Part shown: in pieces, positions 5,894 to 52,122 of the stretch | How the letters are laid out: each line of letters opens with the position of its first letter | Position numbering within the stretch: the first letter of the stretch is position 1 | IMG/VR virus record: IMGVR_UViG_3300010413_000014 | Coordinates: 11,795 to 75,794 of that record | Direction: 5' to 3' (one strand) | Length of the DNA: 64,000 nt | Source: a virus | Notes under the pieces: generated by a model | The model's input: only the letters and a program-made list of their open reading frames with translations | Told to the model about the DNA's origin: nothing | Database searches by the model: none | Program-made: the position numbers and the translations under genes

Positions 5894-6634
5894 TTATCGT
5901 TTTACTGCTCTCTCTTGACGCATCTTTTTCTCTTTGATCTTGGACATCCTATCTTGGATAGTAGATTTTGTTGCACTTTCCAATGCATTTGTTTGTACAA
6001 TCAGGTAAGGAATTTGCCAGGCTCGATAATAGTCAAGATTGAAGTCACTACAAACCATCTTAACTGAATTGATCACATTGAAACGCTCCATCATATGTCC
6101 GCCTGCTTGGAGGTAATCTGGATCGACTGTGTTCACTGGTCTGAATTGCTCTTCCCAATACTTTTGTGATTCCTTTATCGAGGTTTTAATCCAATTAAAC
6201 ACTCCCATCACACTCTCTATTGAACTATTCAAGATAACTTCCTTAAACCTTCTAAAATCATTGGTTTCGGAATCAAAATCTCGATTTCGAGTTTGGTGAT
6301 AACATACAGTTGCAACAATTGTAGCTATCTCATCAATTGTGTCACCATTGCCCAGGTTGGTAAGTTGAGCTTCAAGCTCCATACGAGCTATGAAGGGAAT
6401 GTAATCGATGGATGGTGGTATGAGGAAGTTGCTATACTTTGGCAACTCTAATTTACTTGGATCAATCCTCACGATCTGCTTTATGAGAAGATCGGCTTCT
6501 TTAAAGGCACGACGGAAGCGGAAGAATTTTAGCAATCCTTTCGCTTCAAAGTTCAGTACCTCTTTCATGATCATTACATGATCCACCGACTTTCTATCAA
6601 TAAAATGCTTTAGATGTCGGAACTGCAATATCAT
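5894..6634 (-). CDS. Hypothetical morphogenesis protein
   Basis: 246-aa ORF coupled to its neighbours. Confidence 0.5.
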   Translation of the reverse strand: MILQFRHLKHFIDRKSVDHVMIMKEVLNFEAKGLLKFFRFRRAFKEADLLIKQIVRIDPSKLELPKYSNFLIPPSIDYIPFIARMELEAQLTNLGNGDTIDEIATIVATVCYHQTRNRDFDSETNDFRRFKEVILNSSIESVMGVFNWIKTSIKESQKYWEEQFRPVNTVDPDYLQAGGHMMERFNVINSVKMVCSDFNLDYYRAWQIPYLIVQTNALESATKSTIQDRMSKIKEKKMRQERAVKR

Positions 6635-7152
6635 TTCAACTTAACCAACTTCGCTTCAAGTTCTCGCTGCTTTTCCAACAAGATCTTCCTCTGCATCTCT
6701 GTAGCCTGAAAGAGATTCAGCTTGATATTTTCAAGTGTCCTTTCGATATCCTCTCGCCTCAATCGAGGCTTAGCTGGCTGCTGGATCTTAGGTCGAACCT
6801 TGATCGGCGCCTTCTTAACGATAGGTGACTGCGGCTTTGGCTCCGGCAACTTTGGAGTCTCCAGCTTTATGATTAATTCCGGACTTCGAGTAGGCTCTTC
6901 GATATCATCCTCCTGATGGTACTCCGGATCTTCATCATCAAAATCCTCCTCTGATTCCTCCGGCTCTTCGTTCTTTATCTTCATCTTGGCACGCGCTTCC
7001 TCTACTGCCTTAATCCCCTTCTCGATCAACTCGGCTTTCGGACCTCCAGCTTTGAATGCATCGGCCACCTGATACCTCTCAAAGATACCTTTCAACTCGT
7101 GATACTTCGCGGCTTCAAACTCTTCTCTTACTTGCTCAATAGTCTGCTCCAT
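6631..7152 (-). CDS. Hypothetical protein with acidic and Pro/Lys-rich linker
   Basis: 173 aa; helical termini, low-complexity middle. Confidence 0.55.
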   Translation of the reverse strand: MEQTIEQVREEFEAAKYHELKGIFERYQVADAFKAGGPKAELIEKGIKAVEEARAKMKIKNEEPEESEEDFDDEDPEYHQEDDIEEPTRSPELIIKLETPKLPEPKPQSPIVKKAPIKVRPKIQQPAKPRLRREDIERTLENIKLNLFQATEMQRKILLEKQRELEAKLVKLK

Positions 7153-7265
7153 ATTGTTAAAATTTTATAAATAGTTAATGCTCAAGTTACTAAGATTTCA
7201 CCCTACTCCAAGATACTCTCACAGCTCAATAGCGCTTACTGCCATGTTGATTGTATCTTGGATTC

Positions 7266-8504
7266 TTAGATGTATCCTTTCGATCTCACAGCTCTCGCTC
7301 CTGGCTTCACTGGCGCACCATCTGACTTTGTATTCTTGTAGGTTAATCCATATCGTAGTGCTGCTAATGTATCAGGCTCGTGTGGATAGTTATCCTTCTG
7401 ATCCTTCTTGAAGGTCATGTATGCGAAATATAGATGTGGGTTATCTCCTATCATCACGATTGGCATATCTTGAACCTTCTTGATGCCTTGATCCTTACTA
7501 TTCGGACCTTTCTTGCAGCCTCGGATCTTTCTAAATCCTGCTTTACGAATCTCGCCTATGAATGCTGGCATTGCTGAGTCAGCTACTATGAGAGCGTTTG
7601 ATGGGACTTGGTGCTGCTTCATCAGTTGGATTGTTTCACTGATTAGCATCTTCGGCCTAGAAAATACTTCGCGCACATAGTATACCTCATCAAAGTAATT
7701 GATCTCTATGAGTGCTGTACTATCCTTTCCTCCGTTTCCAAAGTCTAATCCATACCAGACCTCTCCTTGATCATAGAATATTGGATACTCACCCCACCCA
7801 TCATAGATCCTTCCTTCAACCTCTAATGTCCATTCTGCTAAGATAACGTTCTTGTAGTAGGTTGGATTGGTTCTCTCTAAGTCTCGATACCTCTGTACTG
7901 TTGATGCAGCTAGGTTATCAAGATTATCTAAATAGGTACTATGGATGTAGCATGTATCATGGAATCTCTCTGGATTTGGTTGTCCTTCGATAAACCATTC
8001 TTTGTGAATCCAACTTTTTACGGCTGATCCGGGGTTATAAACAAGAATAATCTTTAAAGGCTTTCCTTTTACTCGAACACCTTCATCGATCTTAGAGAAC
8101 TCATCAAAACTCTCGATTTCCTCCGCTTCTTCCATTATTACTATCGTAATTCCGGATAAAGACTTTAACTTTGCGGTTTGGCTTCCTGTTGCTCTAATTC
8201 CTTTGAAAGAAATAGTGCTACCTGTGATCTTATTTGTGTAGAGATTGGTCTTATAGTGAAAATCATCTCTAACTCCCATCATCTTCATGACGAGTTCTAC
8301 ATCTGCGATCGTCGAATCTTCACTTGAAGTCATCACTTGTCGTAGATATAGAATCTTATGACCAAAATCCGAGTATGTTGCTGTTACTGCAGCTCCTGCT
8401 GCAGTGAAAGACTTTGCAGAACCCCTACCTCCGTAAACTTGATAATACCTCTTATCAGTTAGCTCGTCACTAAACAATGATTCGAAGATAGGTGAAAACT
8501 CCAT
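7266..8504 (-). CDS. terL: Terminase large subunit (PBSX/SPP1-like)
   Basis: Walker A YGGRGSAKS, Walker B IVIMEEAEE, LVYNP, nuclease motif YGLDFG. Confidence 0.93.
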   Translation of the reverse strand: MEFSPIFESLFSDELTDKRYYQVYGGRGSAKSFTAAGAAVTATYSDFGHKILYLRQVMTSSEDSTIADVELVMKMMGVRDDFHYKTNLYTNKITGSTISFKGIRATGSQTAKLKSLSGITIVIMEEAEEIESFDEFSKIDEGVRVKGKPLKIILVYNPGSAVKSWIHKEWFIEGQPNPERFHDTCYIHSTYLDNLDNLAASTVQRYRDLERTNPTYYKNVILAEWTLEVEGRIYDGWGEYPIFYDQGEVWYGLDFGNGGKDSTALIEINYFDEVYYVREVFSRPKMLISETIQLMKQHQVPSNALIVADSAMPAFIGEIRKAGFRKIRGCKKGPNSKDQGIKKVQDMPIVMIGDNPHLYFAYMTFKKDQKDNYPHEPDTLAALRYGLTYKNTKSDGAPVKPGARAVRSKGYI

Positions 8505-8505
8505 A

Positions 8506-8961
8506 TTAATCCTCCTTGGTTCGTTTGTTTTGAGGAGAGAATGTGATGTTTATTTTTCGTTTAGATTCCCCTTCTTCTTCGATCGATATACCTGTCGATT
8601 CAACTGCATCATCCTGCTTCTCAAACTCCTCATCAAGCTGTCCTTTATAGTGAGTTGCGAACCACTTTGAAGCTTCATAGTGCTTTGGGTTTGTTGGATC
8701 ACAAATAGCATCAATGATGTTACCTGAGGCTATTAACCTTATCTGAGCTACAGCTCTTCGATACTTCTCATGAAGATCTGGGAAATGTTTGAATAGGTTT
8801 TGTATTTGTTGAATCGATAGCTTAGTAACTGTTCTGATCTTAGTATAAGAAAGAGCTCCTTCTTCGATTGCAATTGAAACTTCATCATATCGTCGCTTCA
8901 ATTCATCTGGTGGCGTATTATGTCCCCTCACTCCTTTTCTCTTTTCTTTTTCGGATCTCAT
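8506..8961 (-). CDS. Probable terminase small subunit
   Basis: Directly upstream of TerL; HTH-like N-half, ASKWF helix, C-terminal INITF strand. Confidence 0.65.
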   Translation of the reverse strand: MRSEKEKRKGVRGHNTPPDELKRRYDEVSIAIEEGALSYTKIRTVTKLSIQQIQNLFKHFPDLHEKYRRAVAQIRLIASGNIIDAICDPTNPKHYEASKWFATHYKGQLDEEFEKQDDAVESTGISIEEEGESKRKINITFSPQNKRTKED

Positions 8962-44903: not shown

Positions 44904-45647
44904 TTATTTCTTTAAGTTTTTAAGTGCGTTATACGCTGGCTGCAAATCTTCTTCAGTATGAATCGCTCCTCCAGTATTCATACCTAGATACCACCTAATA
45001 ACATCCTTTGGATCTTCGAGATCGTTCACATTAAAATAAATATCCAGGTTTTCGCGATCACTCCAAGTTAGATCTGAATAGTTTGCTGCAGCAAACACCT
45101 CAAACTCACCCTTCATGAAGGAGATGATGGCATTTAGTCGTTGCTTCCCATCAACTAAAACCATTGGCTCATCAGCGTTACCTTTTCCCCAACCAGGAGC
45201 ATTAAAATAAATCTCACGACCAGTAGTTCCACCTGATAATAAGAATTCGATATAAGCAATCTTTTGCATATCACTCCAAATATACCCTCTTTGAAAATCA
45301 GGGTCCATATTAAGATTCCATTGTTCCTTATATCTATCTAAATTAGAGATAATCCTTCGATGCTCTATGATGACTCGATAATAACTTTGTCGTTGAACGA
45401 AAGCAAAATCTTGCACTCTGAAGATTGGTGTACGCTCATCTATTTCAAGAAAGACATTTTTCGTCTCAAAGTAGTTGATAATTGTATCCACATACTTATC
45501 TAAAACCGAAATCTCAATCGGATTACTATATTGATGCCAAGTGAATCCGATCTCTTTCTTAAATTTCAGAGCTCGTCTATCGATTTGCTCTTGTATTTTA
45601 GGAGCTGATTCGGTATTAAAGATTAATCTCGTTGCTTTTGTTTTCAT
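44904..45647 (-). CDS. DUF262 (ParB/Srx-fold) protein
   Basis: PDFQRGYIWS, LVDGKQRL, MNTGG. Confidence 0.8.
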   Translation of the reverse strand: MKTKATRLIFNTESAPKIQEQIDRRALKFKKEIGFTWHQYSNPIEISVLDKYVDTIINYFETKNVFLEIDERTPIFRVQDFAFVQRQSYYRVIIEHRRIISNLDRYKEQWNLNMDPDFQRGYIWSDMQKIAYIEFLLSGGTTGREIYFNAPGWGKGNADEPMVLVDGKQRLNAIISFMKGEFEVFAAANYSDLTWSDRENLDIYFNVNDLEDPKDVIRWYLGMNTGGAIHTEEDLQPAYNALKNLKK

Positions 45648-45793
45648 AACTTTGTGTTTGAAATTATGTTCTAAAGATAGCTCTAATTAAAGCATAAGAC
45701 AACATCTAGTAAAAGAAAAGAGCAGAAATCCAAAAATTTCTGCTCTTCTAAAAATTAACCGGGAATAATTTATTTTGCTGATTCTTCAGCAGG

Positions 45794-46312
45794 CTACTCA
45801 TCTGCCTTCTCCTGATTAAGAGATTCGGGAAGATACCTCTTCATTACAGTTTGAACTTGGGAATAATAAACCTTCATCTCTTTTTGGATTTCACCAGGCT
45901 TTTGACCTTTTTTCAGGCGCTCAAGGATTTCAGCGGATTTGGACCCCTCACGCGGAACATCTTGAGCCACTCGAACCTTTTCTTTTGGTGATTGAGGTTC
46001 TTTAGATATCTTCTTTTCTTTGGGTACCTTGGGCTCTTTTTCTTTCTTGGGTTGCTTAGGTGTCTTTTCAAACTTCTCTTTCTTATTGGAAGGGATCTCG
46101 GTACTTCCAAGCTTCTCAAGTAATTCGTGAATCTGGTCACCAATCTCTGATATTCGCTCATCAGCTTGCTCCTGCGTTGCTTGCAATTCTTCACCTTCGT
46201 GAGACTCTGAGTATTCAGCTATCTCTTTTTCAATGATACTCATCTCTGCCTGGAGATCTTTAATTTGGGTTTTAATTTTAGCCTTGGCTGCTACACTTAA
46301 CATAATAATCAA
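45794..46312 (-). CDS. Coiled-coil early protein with shared C-terminal HTH tag
   Basis: Ends EGSKSAEILERLKKGQKPGEIQKEMKVYYSQVQTVMKRYL. Confidence 0.7.
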   Translation of the reverse strand: MIIMLSVAAKAKIKTQIKDLQAEMSIIEKEIAEYSESHEGEELQATQEQADERISEIGDQIHELLEKLGSTEIPSNKKEKFEKTPKQPKKEKEPKVPKEKKISKEPQSPKEKVRVAQDVPREGSKSAEILERLKKGQKPGEIQKEMKVYYSQVQTVMKRYLPESLNQEKADE

Positions 46313-46394
46313 TTTTAAATGAATACTATTTTATTAATATTTCAGAGCTCTAAAAATAAGTGACAAATTTCGCTTTTGCAACAGTTGAGATAAA

Positions 46395-48440
46395 TTATTT
46401 CAAGATTTTGATTCTCGATGATTTATTCAAGGTGAATTGATTGCCTTTTGCCCACTTTACATCATAAGCAAGCTCACCATTGAAAAGGATGATTGATCCT
46501 TCACAATCTTTCAGATCCTTCTTGAATCGAGCATACTCTTCAGACCATATCATTACATTAAAAAGATTATAATTGGCTTCGATTATCAATCGCATGAACT
46601 TACCTTTGGCGCTCGATCTCTCGACAGCTTGAACAATATAACCTCCAAAACTTCTTATTATTCGATTATGTTGAGGTTGCGATGCTATTTCGATTGAGCA
46701 AAATTCAGATGGAATATCAGTCAGCTCTTCGACCATTTGCTTGTAATCAATAAAAACTAATCCAGTTAATTCCTTTTGCTTCATTTGCCACCACCATCGT
46801 TCTTCCATTGAGCCTACAGTAAATTGATCGCGATCCGGTTTAGTAACCTTAACCTTTTTATATTCTCTGAATTGCTTTATGAGATTGTTTCGCTTTTCTT
46901 CTGCTCCTTCAATATTCATCAATCGATCAAATGCACCACAAGCTATTAATGCTTCATATGTTTGCTTCTTGACTGCTGATCCCTTATAATTGAAACGATC
47001 AATAAATTCAATCAGATCTTTGAAGGGACCGTTCTCATTGCGCTCTTCGATTATTTGCTTTGCTGTTTCGAGACCAATGCCTTTGATAGAAGATAGTCCC
47101 CAATAGATTGTTTTCGATTGTAGATCAGAAGACATCTCCATATCTGATCCGTTGATATCAGCTGATACAATCGATATCTCTTTAGTGTTGAAGATTTCAG
47201 AAAGAAATTTCAATCCTTTTTCTTTCTTAGCATAATCAAGAGCTACAGTCCAATATTCAATCGGATAATGCACCTTCAAATACTGTGAGGCATATCCAGT
47301 CTTTGCGTAAGCTGCAGCGTGACTACGGTTAAAAGAATACTTAGCAAATTCAAGCAATACATTCCAGATTTCATTGAAGGTTTCTTGTGGACATCCACGA
47401 GATAAAAATCCTTCTTCAACTCGATCTCTCCACGCTTTCAACACCTTCTCCTTCTTTTTACCCATCGCTCGACGCACATCATCTGCCTCCATATCTGACA
47501 ATCCTCCGATCTGCGAGCAAACCTGCATTATCTGTTCCTGATAACACAAAATTCCATATGTATCTTTCGTGATATTCTCCATGCCCCACAGATACTCAAC
47601 AGGTCGTCCTTCATTCTTACATTTTACATAGATCTCGTGATAATGATTCTCCATTGGACCAGGACGACACAATGCAACTGCAGCAATCAAATCTTCAATT
47701 GACTTCGGCTTTAGTGACCGAGTATATCCTACTTGAGTATCTGTTCCGAATTGGAATACATCTCCACTCCATCCATTTGAAAAGTAACGATACACTTCAG
47801 GATCTTCAGGAAGGTTGTAAATATCGGGTTTTTCTTTACCATTCTTCTCAATCAGATTCAAGATATCAGTAAATTTATCCAACTGCTTGATCCCAAGGAT
47901 ATCCTCCTTTAAGAATCCTGCATCATCCATCTCACCTCCACCCCACTCACTAACAATTAAAGGAGTGCTTTGTCCTTTAGGTCGAACCTTTCGAAGTGGA
48001 CACCACTCTTCACCTTTCAAAGTATCAGGAAAGATGATCATCGCACATGAGTGTATTGATCGGGTTTTTGGTTGCTCTAGAATTGAAGGCATCATACGAA
48101 AGATTTGAGATTGTTGCTTGATATAGCGTTTCAATCTCGGCTCTTTCGCAGCTCTTTTAAAGAGATCTTTCATAGAGATATCTTCATTATCAATGATCGC
48201 AGTCATTAAATTAGCCATTGCGAAATCATTGTCGAACTGCTTATCGAGATCTTTCAATACACCCTTCAATTGTAGTGTTGTAAAGGTTCCAACACTACAT
48301 ACTTGAGTTTCGCCAAATCTACGTTCCATATAAGCCTTAACTGCTGGACGATCGCGTCCTGCAAAATCAGTATCAACGTCTGGCAATGTACCGTTAATCA
48401 GCTTTTTACCGACAACTTGTTTGATTTCTAATACTTTCAT
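46395..48440 (-). CDS. dnaE: DNA polymerase III alpha, C-terminal half (split)
   Basis: LPDVDTDF, KEDILG, VFQF, RPGPM, YQEQIM, YSFNRSHA..Y, GLSSIKGIG, OB fold. Confidence 0.92.
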   Translation of the reverse strand: MKVLEIKQVVGKKLINGTLPDVDTDFAGRDRPAVKAYMERRFGETQVCSVGTFTTLQLKGVLKDLDKQFDNDFAMANLMTAIIDNEDISMKDLFKRAAKEPRLKRYIKQQSQIFRMMPSILEQPKTRSIHSCAMIIFPDTLKGEEWCPLRKVRPKGQSTPLIVSEWGGGEMDDAGFLKEDILGIKQLDKFTDILNLIEKNGKEKPDIYNLPEDPEVYRYFSNGWSGDVFQFGTDTQVGYTRSLKPKSIEDLIAAVALCRPGPMENHYHEIYVKCKNEGRPVEYLWGMENITKDTYGILCYQEQIMQVCSQIGGLSDMEADDVRRAMGKKKEKVLKAWRDRVEEGFLSRGCPQETFNEIWNVLLEFAKYSFNRSHAAAYAKTGYASQYLKVHYPIEYWTVALDYAKKEKGLKFLSEIFNTKEISIVSADINGSDMEMSSDLQSKTIYWGLSSIKGIGLETAKQIIEERNENGPFKDLIEFIDRFNYKGSAVKKQTYEALIACGAFDRLMNIEGAEEKRNNLIKQFREYKKVKVTKPDRDQFTVGSMEERWWWQMKQKELTGLVFIDYKQMVEELTDIPSEFCSIEIASQPQHNRIIRSFGGYIVQAVERSSAKGKFMRLIIEANYNLFNVMIWSEEYARFKKDLKDCEGSIILFNGELAYDVKWAKGNQFTLNKSSRIKILK

Positions 48441-49321
48441 CTATAATCAACGTTAATATAGTCTAATACAGCTCCACAACCTAATTTATTGATACAGTAA
48501 TTATAGAGTGCGGGGTGAGTGATCTTCATTTTTTGAAATTTATTTACTTCTGTCTCTAAATGAATTCCGAACATACAAAAAATACATCCCGTTCGATCAT
48601 ATCCTTTATCGTATATTGTAGAGTATTGAATACTAAATTTATCAATATATTCCCAAATATCCTCTTCCTTCCAAATTGCTAAAGGATTACTCACCGCCCT
48701 CTTTCCTTCAAATGAATTACACCCCTGTCTCATCCAAGTAGATCGTCGCAAAAAAGATTCTGAAGCCATTGTTCCTATAAAAGGTTTTAGTCCTGTTTCT
48801 TTTTCATATTTTTTAGCTGGATCTTTTTTGAGATATTGGCAACATTTGTGTGATATAGGAAAAGGGGCTTGAATTAAATATTGCCACTTTTTCGATATTC
48901 TGCCTAAAGAAGAGTTATTAACTCCACTTAAACGTAATTCTCTTAATTTATCGCTATGTGTTGTGCGATACTCATAAATAAATTGAGATTGTTCTTTTGA
49001 GATGACTGGATAACCATACTTTTCAATAACTTGTTTGAAGTTTTTTTTAGGCTTTAACCAAGTAACATTATCAATAGTTTTGATAAATTCTCTAATCTCA
49101 GGAAACTCTAATCCTGTATCTACAAATACTGCTGGAATATCAGGATTAATTCTCCTAACTAAATCCAATAAAACCAAACTATCTTTCCCTCCGGAAAAGG
49201 AGATATACATTTGATCTTCAAAGTGCGATAACGCTGCACTGATAACATTTAAAGAATGAGCTACTTTATATTCCAAAGATTCATCTTGAAGCTCTTTTAA
49301 TAATTTTAAGTTTCGATCCAT
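48437..49321 (-). CDS. PAPS-reductase-family (PP-loop, Fe-S) protein
   Basis: SFSGGKDS, VFVDTGLEFPE, CC..LKK.P, RTGCIFC. Confidence 0.85.
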   Translation of the reverse strand: MDRNLKLLKELQDESLEYKVAHSLNVISAALSHFEDQMYISFSGGKDSLVLLDLVRRINPDIPAVFVDTGLEFPEIREFIKTIDNVTWLKPKKNFKQVIEKYGYPVISKEQSQFIYEYRTTHSDKLRELRLSGVNNSSLGRISKKWQYLIQAPFPISHKCCQYLKKDPAKKYEKETGLKPFIGTMASESFLRRSTWMRQGCNSFEGKRAVSNPLAIWKEEDIWEYIDKFSIQYSTIYDKGYDRTGCIFCMFGIHLETEVNKFQKMKITHPALYNYCINKLGCGAVLDYINVDYR

Positions 49322-49322
49322 T

Positions 49323-50948
49323 TCAATATTTTAAAATTTTATCACTCTCTTGTAAATCCTGAATGAAGGTAATCCATTCTTCTCCCTTTCGCAACACCCT
49401 TAAAAGAGATCCTTCATTTAAAATAATCACCTTTTCGTCGGTTACGATCTCATATGCTTTACAATCCACCAGCTCACCCATACGTCCTTCATTCAAGAAC
49501 CTTGAAAACAGTAGATCGAACTCAAGTGGATCGATTTGAATCAAGCCTAACAAATACGATACAAGTGATCCTCCTGCAGATCCACGTCCAATACCAGTAA
49601 GCAGCTTCTCTCTTTTTGCAAATCCAATGATATCATGCAGCACTAGAAAGTAATCGATAACATCACCTCGTTTCAATACACTGATCTCAGTCTTTAATCG
49701 ATCAACATATCTCTGTGGATCTTGAATATTACGTTCTTTGAACCCCTTTTTGATCAGATGTAAGAACAGCTCTTCGTTTGATTTGAACTGCTCCGCTTCT
49801 TCTGGTGTCATCTTGTATTTAGGGAGTCGTCGACTAGTAGTATCATAGACAAAATTACACTCTTGAACTACTTGATCCAAGTTCTGATGAGCTCTTTTGA
49901 ACAAAGGAATCCAGCTCTTACAATCATCTTCGAACATCTGAATAAGTTCTTTAGCATATTCATCAGAACTTCGCATGTATTGATTCTTTGACCTAAAGTC
50001 AAATGCCTTCCCAATCTTCCATAATGCTTCTCGAGCCTCCCAATCCGATTGCTCTGGATAGTATGCATCATAGATAGCAATCGGTTCTAAGTTACTCGTA
50101 AGGAATTGCTCATAATTATTAACGAACTCTTCATCCTTATCAGAACTTTCAAAGCGAACTGTCTCTAGTTGATAGTATGCTCCTGGAATATTCGGTCGAT
50201 CTTTCCACATCATTGTCTTGGGATCATACACAATTACCAGATCTCTAGAGTTTTCAATCAAGAATTCTGGAGATATAGCTACCTCTTCATCCACATTAAG
50301 TTTTGTACTAAACTTCAGTAGGTTTAACCAACCTTGAAATCCTTTAGCATAGCACTTTATGAGGTAGAATGGTCCATTGTCGATTCGAATTGGAACTGTC
50401 ATGCCGATAATCGACTTAATATCATTAGCTTGACATTGATTCTGAAAATCAATAACGCCTGCTAATGTCGATTTTTCGCAAATTCCAAGTGCTTCGATAC
50501 CAAGAAACTTTGCCTTCTTGATCCAATCTGCATATAATCCCAATCCGTTAAGCAATTCATATCCAGAATGAACACCCAAAAATGCCTTAGTTGGAAGTTT
50601 TTGAACAGCTTTCCCAATGTTCTTTAGTTCTGTCAATTCAGCTTCCTCTACTTCTTTGTGCTGCAGATACCATCGACCTCCAAATTCATACACCCAACCA
50701 TCTTCAGGTATTGAGGTACCTGAATCAACTTCATATTCAAGCATCCTTCCAAATCCTTCAGAGTACTCTCTTTCGACTTTTGGAAGTAAAGATTGAGCTG
50801 GCAAAAAATTGAAATCCTCATCAAATAAAAGACGATCATCTGTTATAATGAGATACTCTTTCTCATCTAAACAGAGCACATCGTCTTTAATAGAGAAGTT
50901 GAGCAGTATTTTTCTACAATACTGTTCTAATTTTTTAATTTGATTCAT
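49323..50948 (-). CDS. dnaE: DNA polymerase III alpha, N-terminal half (PHP domain to palm; split)
   Basis: VHSGYELLNG (PHP), DYFL, GRGSAGGSLVSYLLG...DPLEFDLLFSRFLN. Confidence 0.92.
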   Translation of the reverse strand: MNQIKKLEQYCRKILLNFSIKDDVLCLDEKEYLIITDDRLLFDEDFNFLPAQSLLPKVEREYSEGFGRMLEYEVDSGTSIPEDGWVYEFGGRWYLQHKEVEEAELTELKNIGKAVQKLPTKAFLGVHSGYELLNGLGLYADWIKKAKFLGIEALGICEKSTLAGVIDFQNQCQANDIKSIIGMTVPIRIDNGPFYLIKCYAKGFQGWLNLLKFSTKLNVDEEVAISPEFLIENSRDLVIVYDPKTMMWKDRPNIPGAYYQLETVRFESSDKDEEFVNNYEQFLTSNLEPIAIYDAYYPEQSDWEAREALWKIGKAFDFRSKNQYMRSSDEYAKELIQMFEDDCKSWIPLFKRAHQNLDQVVQECNFVYDTTSRRLPKYKMTPEEAEQFKSNEELFLHLIKKGFKERNIQDPQRYVDRLKTEISVLKRGDVIDYFLVLHDIIGFAKREKLLTGIGRGSAGGSLVSYLLGLIQIDPLEFDLLFSRFLNEGRMGELVDCKAYEIVTDEKVIILNEGSLLRVLRKGEEWITFIQDLQESDKILKY

Positions 50949-50951
50949 ATT

Positions 50952-51167
50952 TTATCTTTCGATTAATAATCCTTTTTTAACTCGATCAACTAATCCGATA
51001 ACTAGATCCATACTTACATTATGCTTCTTAGAAACCTTATAAGTGTCAGAATCAATCTTCCAAGAATTCCAAATAGCTTGTTGCTTTTCAGACATTCTCT
51101 TGGGAGAGGCACTTTTCTTTTCTTTTCTGATAATCATATTTCTAGTTGAATTGCTCATTGCTCTCAT
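50952..51167 (-). CDS. Small basic HTH-like early protein
   Basis: Follows promoter 51196; SEKQQAIW...YKVSKKHNVSMDLV. Confidence 0.55.
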   Translation of the reverse strand: MRAMSNSTRNMIIRKEKKSASPKRMSEKQQAIWNSWKIDSDTYKVSKKHNVSMDLVIGLVDRVKKGLLIER

Positions 51168-51288
51168 AACTTTGTGTTTTATTTGTTTTCAATATTTAAA
51201 GATACGGCCATTTGATATATCTAGTAACAGGTAGAGGAAAAATTTCGTTAAATTTTTCCTTTACCAACAAACAAAAACACAAAAACTA

Positions 51289-52122
51289 TTATTTGACAGC
51301 TTTCAAAGCGTGGCGGATGCATGCATCTGTAAAGCCAAGCGCCTCTTTAATTTCTTTCACTGAAGGTGTTGCCTCAAAGCTCTTGATATACTCCAAGATC
51401 TGTTCCTTTTTGCTTCCCTTCTTCTCAGTGTCATCAGAAGTTTGTTTTTCAGACTTCTGCTTAGGCTTCTTTTCGATGTAGACTTTAGTTGGAGCTTTAG
51501 GTTCAACGATTGGATCGGGACGATCTCCAAACAAACTATCAATAGCTTGCTCTACATCTGGATTGATATCTTCAACTTCACTCACAGACTCATCAACTTT
51601 GATTAATGTTTCGAGATCTGGATGAATGAATGTGTTCTTGATAGTAAGGTTGGAGTAAAAAGCTTTCTGATACTCGGTAATGTTAGATGCATTTTGTAAT
51701 GAATATAAAGCAACAATCAACTTAAGCCGATCTTCACACATCAAAAAGAACATCATCTGACCAACAATTGAATCGTAATCTTTGCGATCCAGTTTCATCA
51801 TCTCTACTCTCATCAAAGCTGCATCGTAGATTTGATCTAAAGTGAATTCAGTCTTTTGAGCCTTTGAAGCTTTTGGAGCCTCGTTATCGATAATGAGTGG
51901 TCCTGTTGGAGCTTCAAAGACTACTTCTTTAACTTCTGTCTCCTCAACCTTCGATCCATCACAATTCAAAACTAATGATGCTTTTCCAATAACTTCAATC
52001 TTATCAACTCCTAACAGAGTGCCAGATAAACTGCATCGTGAACATTTATAAACATCTCCTTCAGGAGATTCTTGTTTTTGGAAAGAGTGACGATTATCAC
52101 TCAGCTCGAATACTTTTTTCAT
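51289..52122 (-). CDS. Multidomain protein with C-terminal HTH
   Basis: N-terminal H..CSRC; ends GSKKEQILEYIK...SVKEIKEALGFTDACIR. Confidence 0.6.
   Translation of the reverse strand: MKKVFELSDNRHSFQKQESPEGDVYKCSRCSLSGTLLGVDKIEVIGKASLVLNCDGSKVEETEVKEVVFEAPTGPLIIDNEAPKASKAQKTEFTLDQIYDAALMRVEMMKLDRKDYDSIVGQMMFFLMCEDRLKLIVALYSLQNASNITEYQKAFYSNLTIKNTFIHPDLETLIKVDESVSEVEDINPDVEQAIDSLFGDRPDPIVEPKAPTKVYIEKKPKQKSEKQTSDDTEKKGSKKEQILEYIKSFEATPSVKEIKEALGFTDACIRHALKAVK

Follow-up and report, generated by a model that had tools for sequence, protein, structure and literature searches.

How can a phage keep its only replicative DNA polymerase when the gene for it is cut just before the codons for the catalytic aspartates? 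This question is raised by IMG/VR record IMGVR_UViG_3300010413_000014, a phage genome of 75,794 bp that is estimated to be 94% complete and in which DnaE, the alpha subunit of DNA polymerase III (Pol III), is encoded as two separate halves. The stretch analysed here, hereafter called the window, comprises 64,000 nucleotides and corresponds to bases 11795-75794 of that record; coordinates refer to the window unless a related locus is named. An original prediction, made by reading the sequence, had proposed that a peptide tail on the N-half and a peptide head on the C-half are relics of an intein that can no longer splice, and that they might serve as a clasp for a two-chain polymerase. On balance, we consider it probable that the two halves are joined non-covalently via an inert half-HINT (Hedgehog/intein) domain from a split intein, in a two-chain polymerase that is cut at a former intein site.

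A DnaE polymerase encoded as two halves

All genes of the locus are carried on the minus strand, where three tightly packed open reading frames (ORFs) code for proteins of 541, 294, and 681 amino acids (aa). The DnaE N-half (49323-50948; 541 aa plus stop) contains the PHP domain (PF02811) and the first part of the palm (PF07733, positions 3-98). Its final extein motif, FSRFLNEGRMG (49476-49508), aligns with FERFLNEGRVGK|SLPD in the unsplit phage DnaE of locus L003, and is followed by a 50-aa tail, ELVDCKAYEIVTDEKVIILNEGSLLRVLRKGEEWITFIQDLQESDKILKY (49326-49475). The C-half (46395-48440; 681 aa plus stop) opens with a 17-aa head, MKVLEIKQVVGKKLING (48390-48440), and continues with TLPDVDTDF (48363-48389), which comprises the opening extein residues with the +1 threonine and the catalytic-aspartate motif. 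The remaining palm (PF07733, positions 100-260), the fingers, and the HhH region follow, with matches to PF17657 and PF14579. The Pfam palm model is cut at one point, and all four families score above their cut-offs, which together with the presence of TLPDVDTDF places the protein among Pol III alpha/DnaE polymerases. In PHROGs, each half has a family of its own, namely phrog_13169 for the N-half, whose match reaches the last residue of the tail, and phrog_12219 for the C-half. The break between FSRFLNEGRMG and TLPDVDTDF and the two added peptides are exactly as originally described.

The gene between the halves (48437-49321; 294 aa) encodes a member of the PAPS-reductase family. It starts after a 1-nt gap past the stop codon of the N-half, and its own stop codon overlaps the start codon of the C-half (ATGA). 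No second DnaE, PolA, or PolB is encoded in the 94%-complete genome. Because there is no other DnaE or family A/B polymerase, the two-piece DnaE must be functional.

A survey of homologues for fused, intact-intein, or split states, which had been suggested with the original prediction, found unsplit genes and two kinds of split genes, and it identifies the DnaE split as a trait of a phage family. The closest cultured relatives (46-50% identity) belong to Cbastvirus and include Cellulophaga phages phi13:1, phiST, and phi19:2 and Tenacibaculum phage Larrie. They exhibit the same split, a tail of ~50 aa, and a 17-aa head (...KLVNG|TLPD), and their halves are directly adjoining, with no gene in the gap. 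A similar arrangement is found in five IMG/VR contigs. Since the cultured phages phi13:1/phiST and Larrie and the IMG/VR contigs share the split, the tail, and the head, the split is not an assembly artefact. We refer to this arrangement (50 + 17 aa in the window) as the short form. In a much larger group, comprising Bacteroides phage BS-TP1 (PQ571274), the gut contig MT835494 (locus L005), and 66 IMG/VR loci, DnaE is cut at the same point and carries a tail of ~77 aa and a head of 32 aa, which we call the long form. Unsplit relatives without an insert have just a 3-12-aa loop at the split site, as in Chryseobacterium phage MA9V-3 (FERFLNEGRVGK-SLPDIDNDI). The split-DnaE family is common in Bacteroidota phages from gut and marine samples, including cultured phages. 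A megablast search with 9 kb around the locus gave no match in the phage collection, and a word-based protein search with the tail recovered only two relatives.

Evidence for HINT ancestry

The model of the window tail produced by AlphaFold2 (AF2) has a mean predicted local distance difference test (pLDDT) value of 84 and contains five strands. When this model was compared with the PDB by using Foldseek, only two geometric matches were obtained, and both are inteins (9hth_A and 5o9j_B). These matches have a query TM-score (TMq) of 0.59, a root-mean-square deviation of 1.6 Å over 43 columns, and probabilities of 0.89 and 0.80, respectively, with all other rows at 0.10 or below. VIA-align, which is independent of Foldseek and was run against 48,161 representative chains, yielded 30 chains with Z of at least 2, approximately 24 of which are inteins or Hedgehog HINT domains (best Z 5.1). 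These matches fall on the block-B region, for example at 46-88 of MchDnaB-1, 37-86 of gp41-1, and 41-96 of Npu DnaE (4lx3). The absolute fold scores are low because the domain is tiny, and the argument from the predicted fold is one of enrichment in inteins, not of absolute scores.

The long form provides the sequence link. A profile of the seven short tails matched a profile of twenty long tails in hhalign with a probability of 96.9% (E 1.3e-10, 46 columns), which identifies the short tail as the core of the long one. Three parts of the long form are missing from the short form: a 12-residue block-A strand, the last approximately ten residues of the tail, and 15 residues of the head that span blocks F and G. 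By visual inspection, the long form resembles a mini-intein. Its tail starts with a block-A-like segment (A/C-G-L-x-P-A-D-T-T-I-I-G), which is followed by a block-B-like hairpin region. The long-form head, M-K-V-x-x-V-K...V-L-D-C-F-V-D-S-G-Y-V-K-x-E-H-G|S-L-P-D, parallels a genuine C-intein that is present at another DnaE site in locus L011, MKLKSKKYLQHTGKVYDIGVQTQDHSYSVNGAIVHN|S.

Profile searches with the long tail lead to inteins as well. Of the 22 long tails examined, 16 have PF14890 (Intein_splicing) as their best Pfam family, always at profile positions ~48-94 and with sub-threshold scores (best E 2e-4). Among 14 weak matches of the long-tail profile to PDB sequences, six are intein or HINT chains. 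An exhaustive hmmsearch of 1.84 billion representative proteins returned 59 hits with E≤1e-3, mostly the C-terminal ends of DnaE N-halves. This search also reaches the bona fide ribonucleotide reductase (RNR) inteins P0050 and P0051 (library-wide E 4-5e-5), at their PF14890 block B with T-x-x-H intact. Repeat proteins (YadA stalk, Ig, and PepSY) among the tail-profile hits were judged to be spurious.

At locus L083, the head lies in frame after the stop codon of the N-half, and reading through this stop gives a natural single tail-plus-head chain for modelling. The resulting AF2 model is confident only in part (pLDDT ~76-83 in the core), and most of the PDB matches listed by Foldseek, as well as every top-ranking one, are inteins or Hedgehog HINT domains (probability up to 1.00). 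The comparison of predicted tail structures with HINT folds, originally proposed as a check, thus returned intein matches both for the window tail and for the L083 chain. Only the block-B half of the HINT fold is represented in the window, where tail and head amount to 67 aa, compared with ~130 aa for a complete two-lobed domain. Nevertheless, the fold searches with the window tail and the long form, the homology between short and long profiles, and the profile search that reaches RNR inteins uphold the proposal that these peptides are HINT-derived. We conclude that tail plus head being the remnant of a naturally split mini-intein is well supported. None of the 59 profile hits is a catalytically intact intein at this exact position of DnaE, and we infer an active split-intein ancestor there.

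Loss of splicing chemistry

The sequence directly bears out the claim that the junction Cys/Ser, the TxxH motif, and the terminal His-Asn are missing. The window insert starts with Glu after RMG in place of a residue-1 nucleophile, the block-A strand is absent, and relatives do not conserve the Cys found at tail position 5. The position of the block-B TxxH motif is occupied by N-E-G-S in the window and by PEGT, EEGS, AEGQ, NERS, or TEGS in relatives. At the corresponding alignment positions, real inteins carry TYNH, TANH, or TEDH, and no relative keeps both Thr and His. Blocks F and G and the penultimate His/terminal Asn are likewise lacking, as the window head ends in L-I-N-G|T and the N of this sequence is D, G, or E in relatives. 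The one splicing residue that persists is at +1, where all short-form members have Thr, whereas the long-form members mostly have Ser, with Ala or Gln in a few cases. Ser also occupies +1 in several unsplit homologues (L003, L012, and L016), and the occurrence of Ser/Thr in both groups is as expected for a former intein site. With the residue-1 Cys/Ser, TxxH, the terminal His-Asn, and blocks A, F, and G all missing and only Thr+1 kept, canonical splicing is excluded, and the original expectation that the tails probably cannot splice stands.

Rejoining of the halves at the RNA level, which had been raised as an outcome contrary to the original prediction, finds no backing in the window. No group I or group II intron or other relevant Rfam family was detected at E≤1 in 45500-51500, and the window junction has no notable RNA structure. 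A weak Rfam match to L20_leader in the intergenic region downstream of the C-half (45708-45847, minus strand) scores 25 bits against a gathering threshold of 58.7 (E 0.11) and is probably due to chance.

A candidate docking module

The tail and head are maintained by selection. Among long-form pairs with a synonymous divergence (dS) of 0.05-1, the tail has a median ratio of nonsynonymous to synonymous divergence (dN/dS) of 0.12, and the head one of 0.05. In the short form, tails are 30-44% and heads 41-59% identical, with constant lengths, where the polymerase bodies are 49-61% identical. Across 38 tail/head pairs, the tails are acidic (-4 to -17) and the heads basic (mean +2); the corresponding values in the window are -4 for a 52-aa stretch that includes the tail and two preceding extein residues, and +3 for the head. 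An acidic N-piece and a basic C-piece represent the known polarity of natural split inteins. Moreover, tail length always tracks head length, with short tails accompanying short heads and long tails accompanying long heads, and the parts that were lost jointly (block A of the tail and blocks F and G of the head) are partners in the HINT core. Purifying selection, the opposite charges, and the joint shrinkage make non-covalent docking the best reading of this locus.

Under the mechanism that we propose, the sole replicative polymerase is made as two polypeptides, with the palm cut just before PDxDxDF where an intein was once inserted. The N-intein has kept its block-B beta-hairpins and the C-intein its first strand, while the catalytic strands have been lost, such that no peptide bond is formed. 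The acidic tail and the basic head would pair into a small half-HINT beta-domain that holds the palm pieces in register, giving a non-covalent two-chain polymerase. From the features described above we infer both this binding and its need for polymerase assembly. The retained parts correspond to the segments that reportedly make the first electrostatic 'capture' contact in canonical split inteins, as Shah et al. are said to have described in 2013.

Prediction of the complex formed by the window tail and head gave a weak signal, with a score of 0.32 versus 0.05 for the best of three controls. The mark set for this score was reached by 58 of 80 solved complexes and by two of 110 mismatched pairs; at scores of 0.60 or below, only seven of those 80 complexes are found, along with both of the passing mismatches. 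Contacts agree between runs to at least 75%, with a partner pLDDT of 50-51. Because split-intein complexes are in the PDB, the score shows likeness at best.

Alternative explanations

Several results weigh against an intein-derived clasp. The score of the modelled tail-head complex lies in the weak band. In the L083 single-chain model the head is poorly predicted, with pLDDT below 60 from residue 76 and below 50 from residue 97. The sequence link between the short tail and HINT domains is transitive only, via the long form, and the fold scores are low (E>1, Z≤5.1). Window-type tails alone match no intein family in Pfam at E≤10, and a PDB sequence-profile search with the seven short tails returned hairpins of P-type ATPases, SH3 domains, and AbrB and no inteins. 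Lastly, the two palm fragments might associate without help from the tails, and unsplit relatives function with a mere 3-12-aa loop at this site.

The last two points lend themselves to the explanation that the peptides are true intein relics with no role in assembly, tolerated as surface loops while the palm fragments meet via an ordinary domain interface. Aeh1 NrdA and the gp43 A/B proteins of T4-like phages are split phage enzymes that reportedly assemble without intein parts, and the short loop of unsplit relatives and the weak complex prediction also favour this possibility. Neutral relics should erode over time or disappear by deletion, whereas tail and head are under strong purifying selection, retain their lengths and hydrophobic pattern at 30-59% identity, conserve their opposite charges, and have been shortened in coordination. 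We therefore regard tolerated relics as unlikely. Conservation of the module could also reflect another use, such as binding a replisome protein or DNA or regulating the active site. The module lies only a few residues from the catalytic aspartates, and AF2 folds the tail confidently without the head. No such partner is indicated, charge complementarity and co-reduction favour pairing of tail and head, and the first strand of the head completes this very sheet in real split inteins, which leaves reuse of this kind quite improbable. The weak matches of window-type tails to SH3 domains and P-type-ATPase hairpins would suit an unrelated small SH3-like beta domain whose likeness to HINT is convergent. 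We give this idea very little credence, as the fold searches return inteins almost exclusively, the tail profile reaches real inteins, and the tail is homologous to that of the long form, which retains segments resembling blocks A, F, and G and terminates in His-Gly|Ser at this same position. Even less credible is that the halves are still joined covalently, through non-canonical protein splicing or at the level of RNA or translation. Thr+1 is conserved, relatives appear to use recoding at this junction, and residue 1 can be dispensable, as in Ala1 and class-3 inteins. However, the module lacks roughly half of the HINT fold, with no blocks A, F, or G and no terminal Asn/His, and a complete translated gene separates the halves, with its start and stop coupled to both. 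No intron family is detected even at the permissive threshold used, and the window head is in frame with the polymerase body in a region that is free of notable RNA structure. Non-covalent docking by the half-HINT module accounts best for the combined observations.

Comparison with other split genes

The nearest described arrangement is that of 'fractured genes', in which adjoining gene halves carry a naturally split intein and are separated by a free-standing homing endonuclease gene; three of these loci are in DnaE (Dassa et al. 2009, PMC2677866). The window resembles them in that a replication gene is cut at a conserved site, the halves adjoin on one strand with an extra gene in the gap, the tail is N-intein-like, and the C-intein-like head starts with M-K-[VI]. 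Fractured-gene inteins keep all five catalytic residues and the six HINT motifs and splice (PMC2677866), whereas the window has lost the catalytic residues along with half of the fold. The gene between the window halves is a PAPS-reductase homologue and not an endonuclease, and no homing endonuclease is present there.

Several intein sites have been listed in Pol III alpha (Novikova et al. 2016, PMC4760082). The cyanobacterial Ssp/Npu DnaE split intein, which assembles by 'capture and collapse', shares with the window module the host protein family and the combination of an acidic N-piece with a basic C-piece, and the segment retained in the window corresponds to the C-terminal half of its N-intein plus the start of its C-intein. 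It is located at a different DnaE position, Pol III-alpha 'site a' (PMC4760082, PMC2677866). The Ssp/Npu DnaE intein is encoded at distant loci and is an ultrafast splicer of ~138 aa, in contrast to the non-catalytic module of ~67 aa in the window.

Genes in pieces that do without splicing include Aeh1 NrdA (split by mobE), the split gp43 of some T4-like phages, and the split PolB of Methanothermobacter. Like the window DnaE, these are essential replication or nucleotide enzymes made as two chains that need non-covalent assembly. Unlike the window DnaE, they are not known to carry intein-derived docking parts at the break. The closest counterpart is the long form of the BS-TP1 group, with the same insertion site, a homologous tail core, an MK[VI] head start, dead chemistry, and a variable gap gene. 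The long form keeps block A-, F-, and G-like strands, Ala1/Cys1, and His-Gly|Ser, all of which have been lost from the window form.

The split site in related phages

The space between the two halves acts like a cargo slot. Its contents vary by phage, and comprise the PAPS-reductase homologue in the window, a Pif1/Dda-like helicase, an N6/N4 DNA methylase with HNH endonucleases, or nothing (regions compared: window 48437-49321; L004 5503-6828; L005 5499-7183; L059 7697-9001). HNH genes are found in the gap of only one of the relatives, L005 (MT835494). The nearest phage homologues of the window PAPS-reductase protein are from Clostridium and Ruminococcus phages (42-46% identity), and this gene is probably a later passenger.

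Some relatives carry possible recoding signals at the junction between head and body. In 11 distinct long-form junction sequences, the stop codon of the head ORF directly follows the Pro of G-S-L-P, and the body resumes 4 or 5 nt further on, in the +1 or +2 frame. Such stop-gap junctions are located at L005 (7255-7300), L032, L040, L052, L059, L062, L069-L075, L079, and L080, and several of them offer no start codon in the frame of the body. Each has a GC-rich hairpin of 9-10 bp that extends up to the first base of CCG, and the stems differ by compensatory changes. The minimum free energy (MFE) of the 45-nt segment is -19 to -27 kcal/mol at stop-gap junctions versus -4 to -15 kcal/mol at 34 in-frame junctions. 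Judging from these sequences, the stop-gap junctions are candidates for programmed bypass or frameshifting and look like ribosome hops. Whether the gap is 4 or 5 nt long, GSLP-DVDxDF would be restored if peptidyl-tRNA-Pro moved over the stop from CCG to the next NCG.

Two other junctions are of a related type. In L011, a 5-nt stop-containing gap (ATT-TAATT-GAT) lies within LPDIDSDF and would be repaired by an ATT-to-ATT hop. In L017 (7425-7505), where the tail is only 34 aa long, a 40-nt insert between ...GSLP and (L)DIDTD folds into nested perfect hairpins (MFE -39.2 kcal/mol, z -5.9). This insert is similar to a bypass gap of the gene-60/byp type. Among known cases, bypassing in T4 gene 60 within the MobA element is the closest (preprint 10.1101/2022.08.31.505936). 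The 77-kb related phage at L011 also has, in addition to its dead tail, an extra intein at GRG|SAGGS of DnaE (5971-8830), which is apparently catalytically intact and has a C-intein end of ...NGAIVHN|S. Protein P0061 carries a contiguous mini-intein at the same GRG|S site.

For the pairs L030/L070 and L040/L041, the C-half bodies are near-identical (tree distances up to ~0.014), and the heads and junction types differ, being in frame in one case and stop-gap with a hairpin in the other. This contrast suggests recent exchange of the gap region as a cassette at the split site. The tree of C-half bodies is a quick, midpoint-rooted IQ-TREE search with 39 rows that represents a subset of the loci, with L011 and many near-duplicates left out. 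It separates a long-form clade (support 100) from a short-form clade (support 100), with L017 alongside the latter, and several unsplit forms group with the short-form side. The tree is compatible with either one origin and later loss or transfer of the cassette.

The unsplit 1278-aa DnaE of Bacteroides phage DAC23 has a 57-aa insert in the same palm loop (L006, 5330-5581). This insert was considered as a contiguous form of the module and was rejected, because hhalign aligned the flanking extein motifs only and no relation was shown. No DAC23-like locus is present in IMG/VR.

Implications

To our knowledge, inteins are regarded as selfish elements whose sole activity is splicing. Full-text searches on inactive, degenerate, or dead inteins and on the split polymerase of Cellulophaga phages yielded no example of a non-splicing split-intein remnant that is used for docking. 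Tentatively, we propose that the window displays the natural domestication of a split intein as a minimal (50 + 17 aa), inert heterodimerisation module, which would be the most reduced stage of a series, and that the junction is a hotspot for repair devices, with ribosome hops in sister phages. The series would run from an active split intein, through a dead full-length split intein (~77 + 32 aa), to the half-HINT domain of the window, and a mobile cassette visiting this site may leave behind repair devices at both the protein level and the translation level.

If this proposal is correct, the two pieces would mark which part of a split intein suffices for association, and they could be used as small, natural, non-reactive, and charge-steered heterodimerisation tags. 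For the phages themselves, the module would represent the exaptation of an intein into a subunit-docking device that has been trimmed under selection to a half-domain of 67 aa, and it would explain how a phage can keep its only polymerase cut just before the catalytic aspartates.

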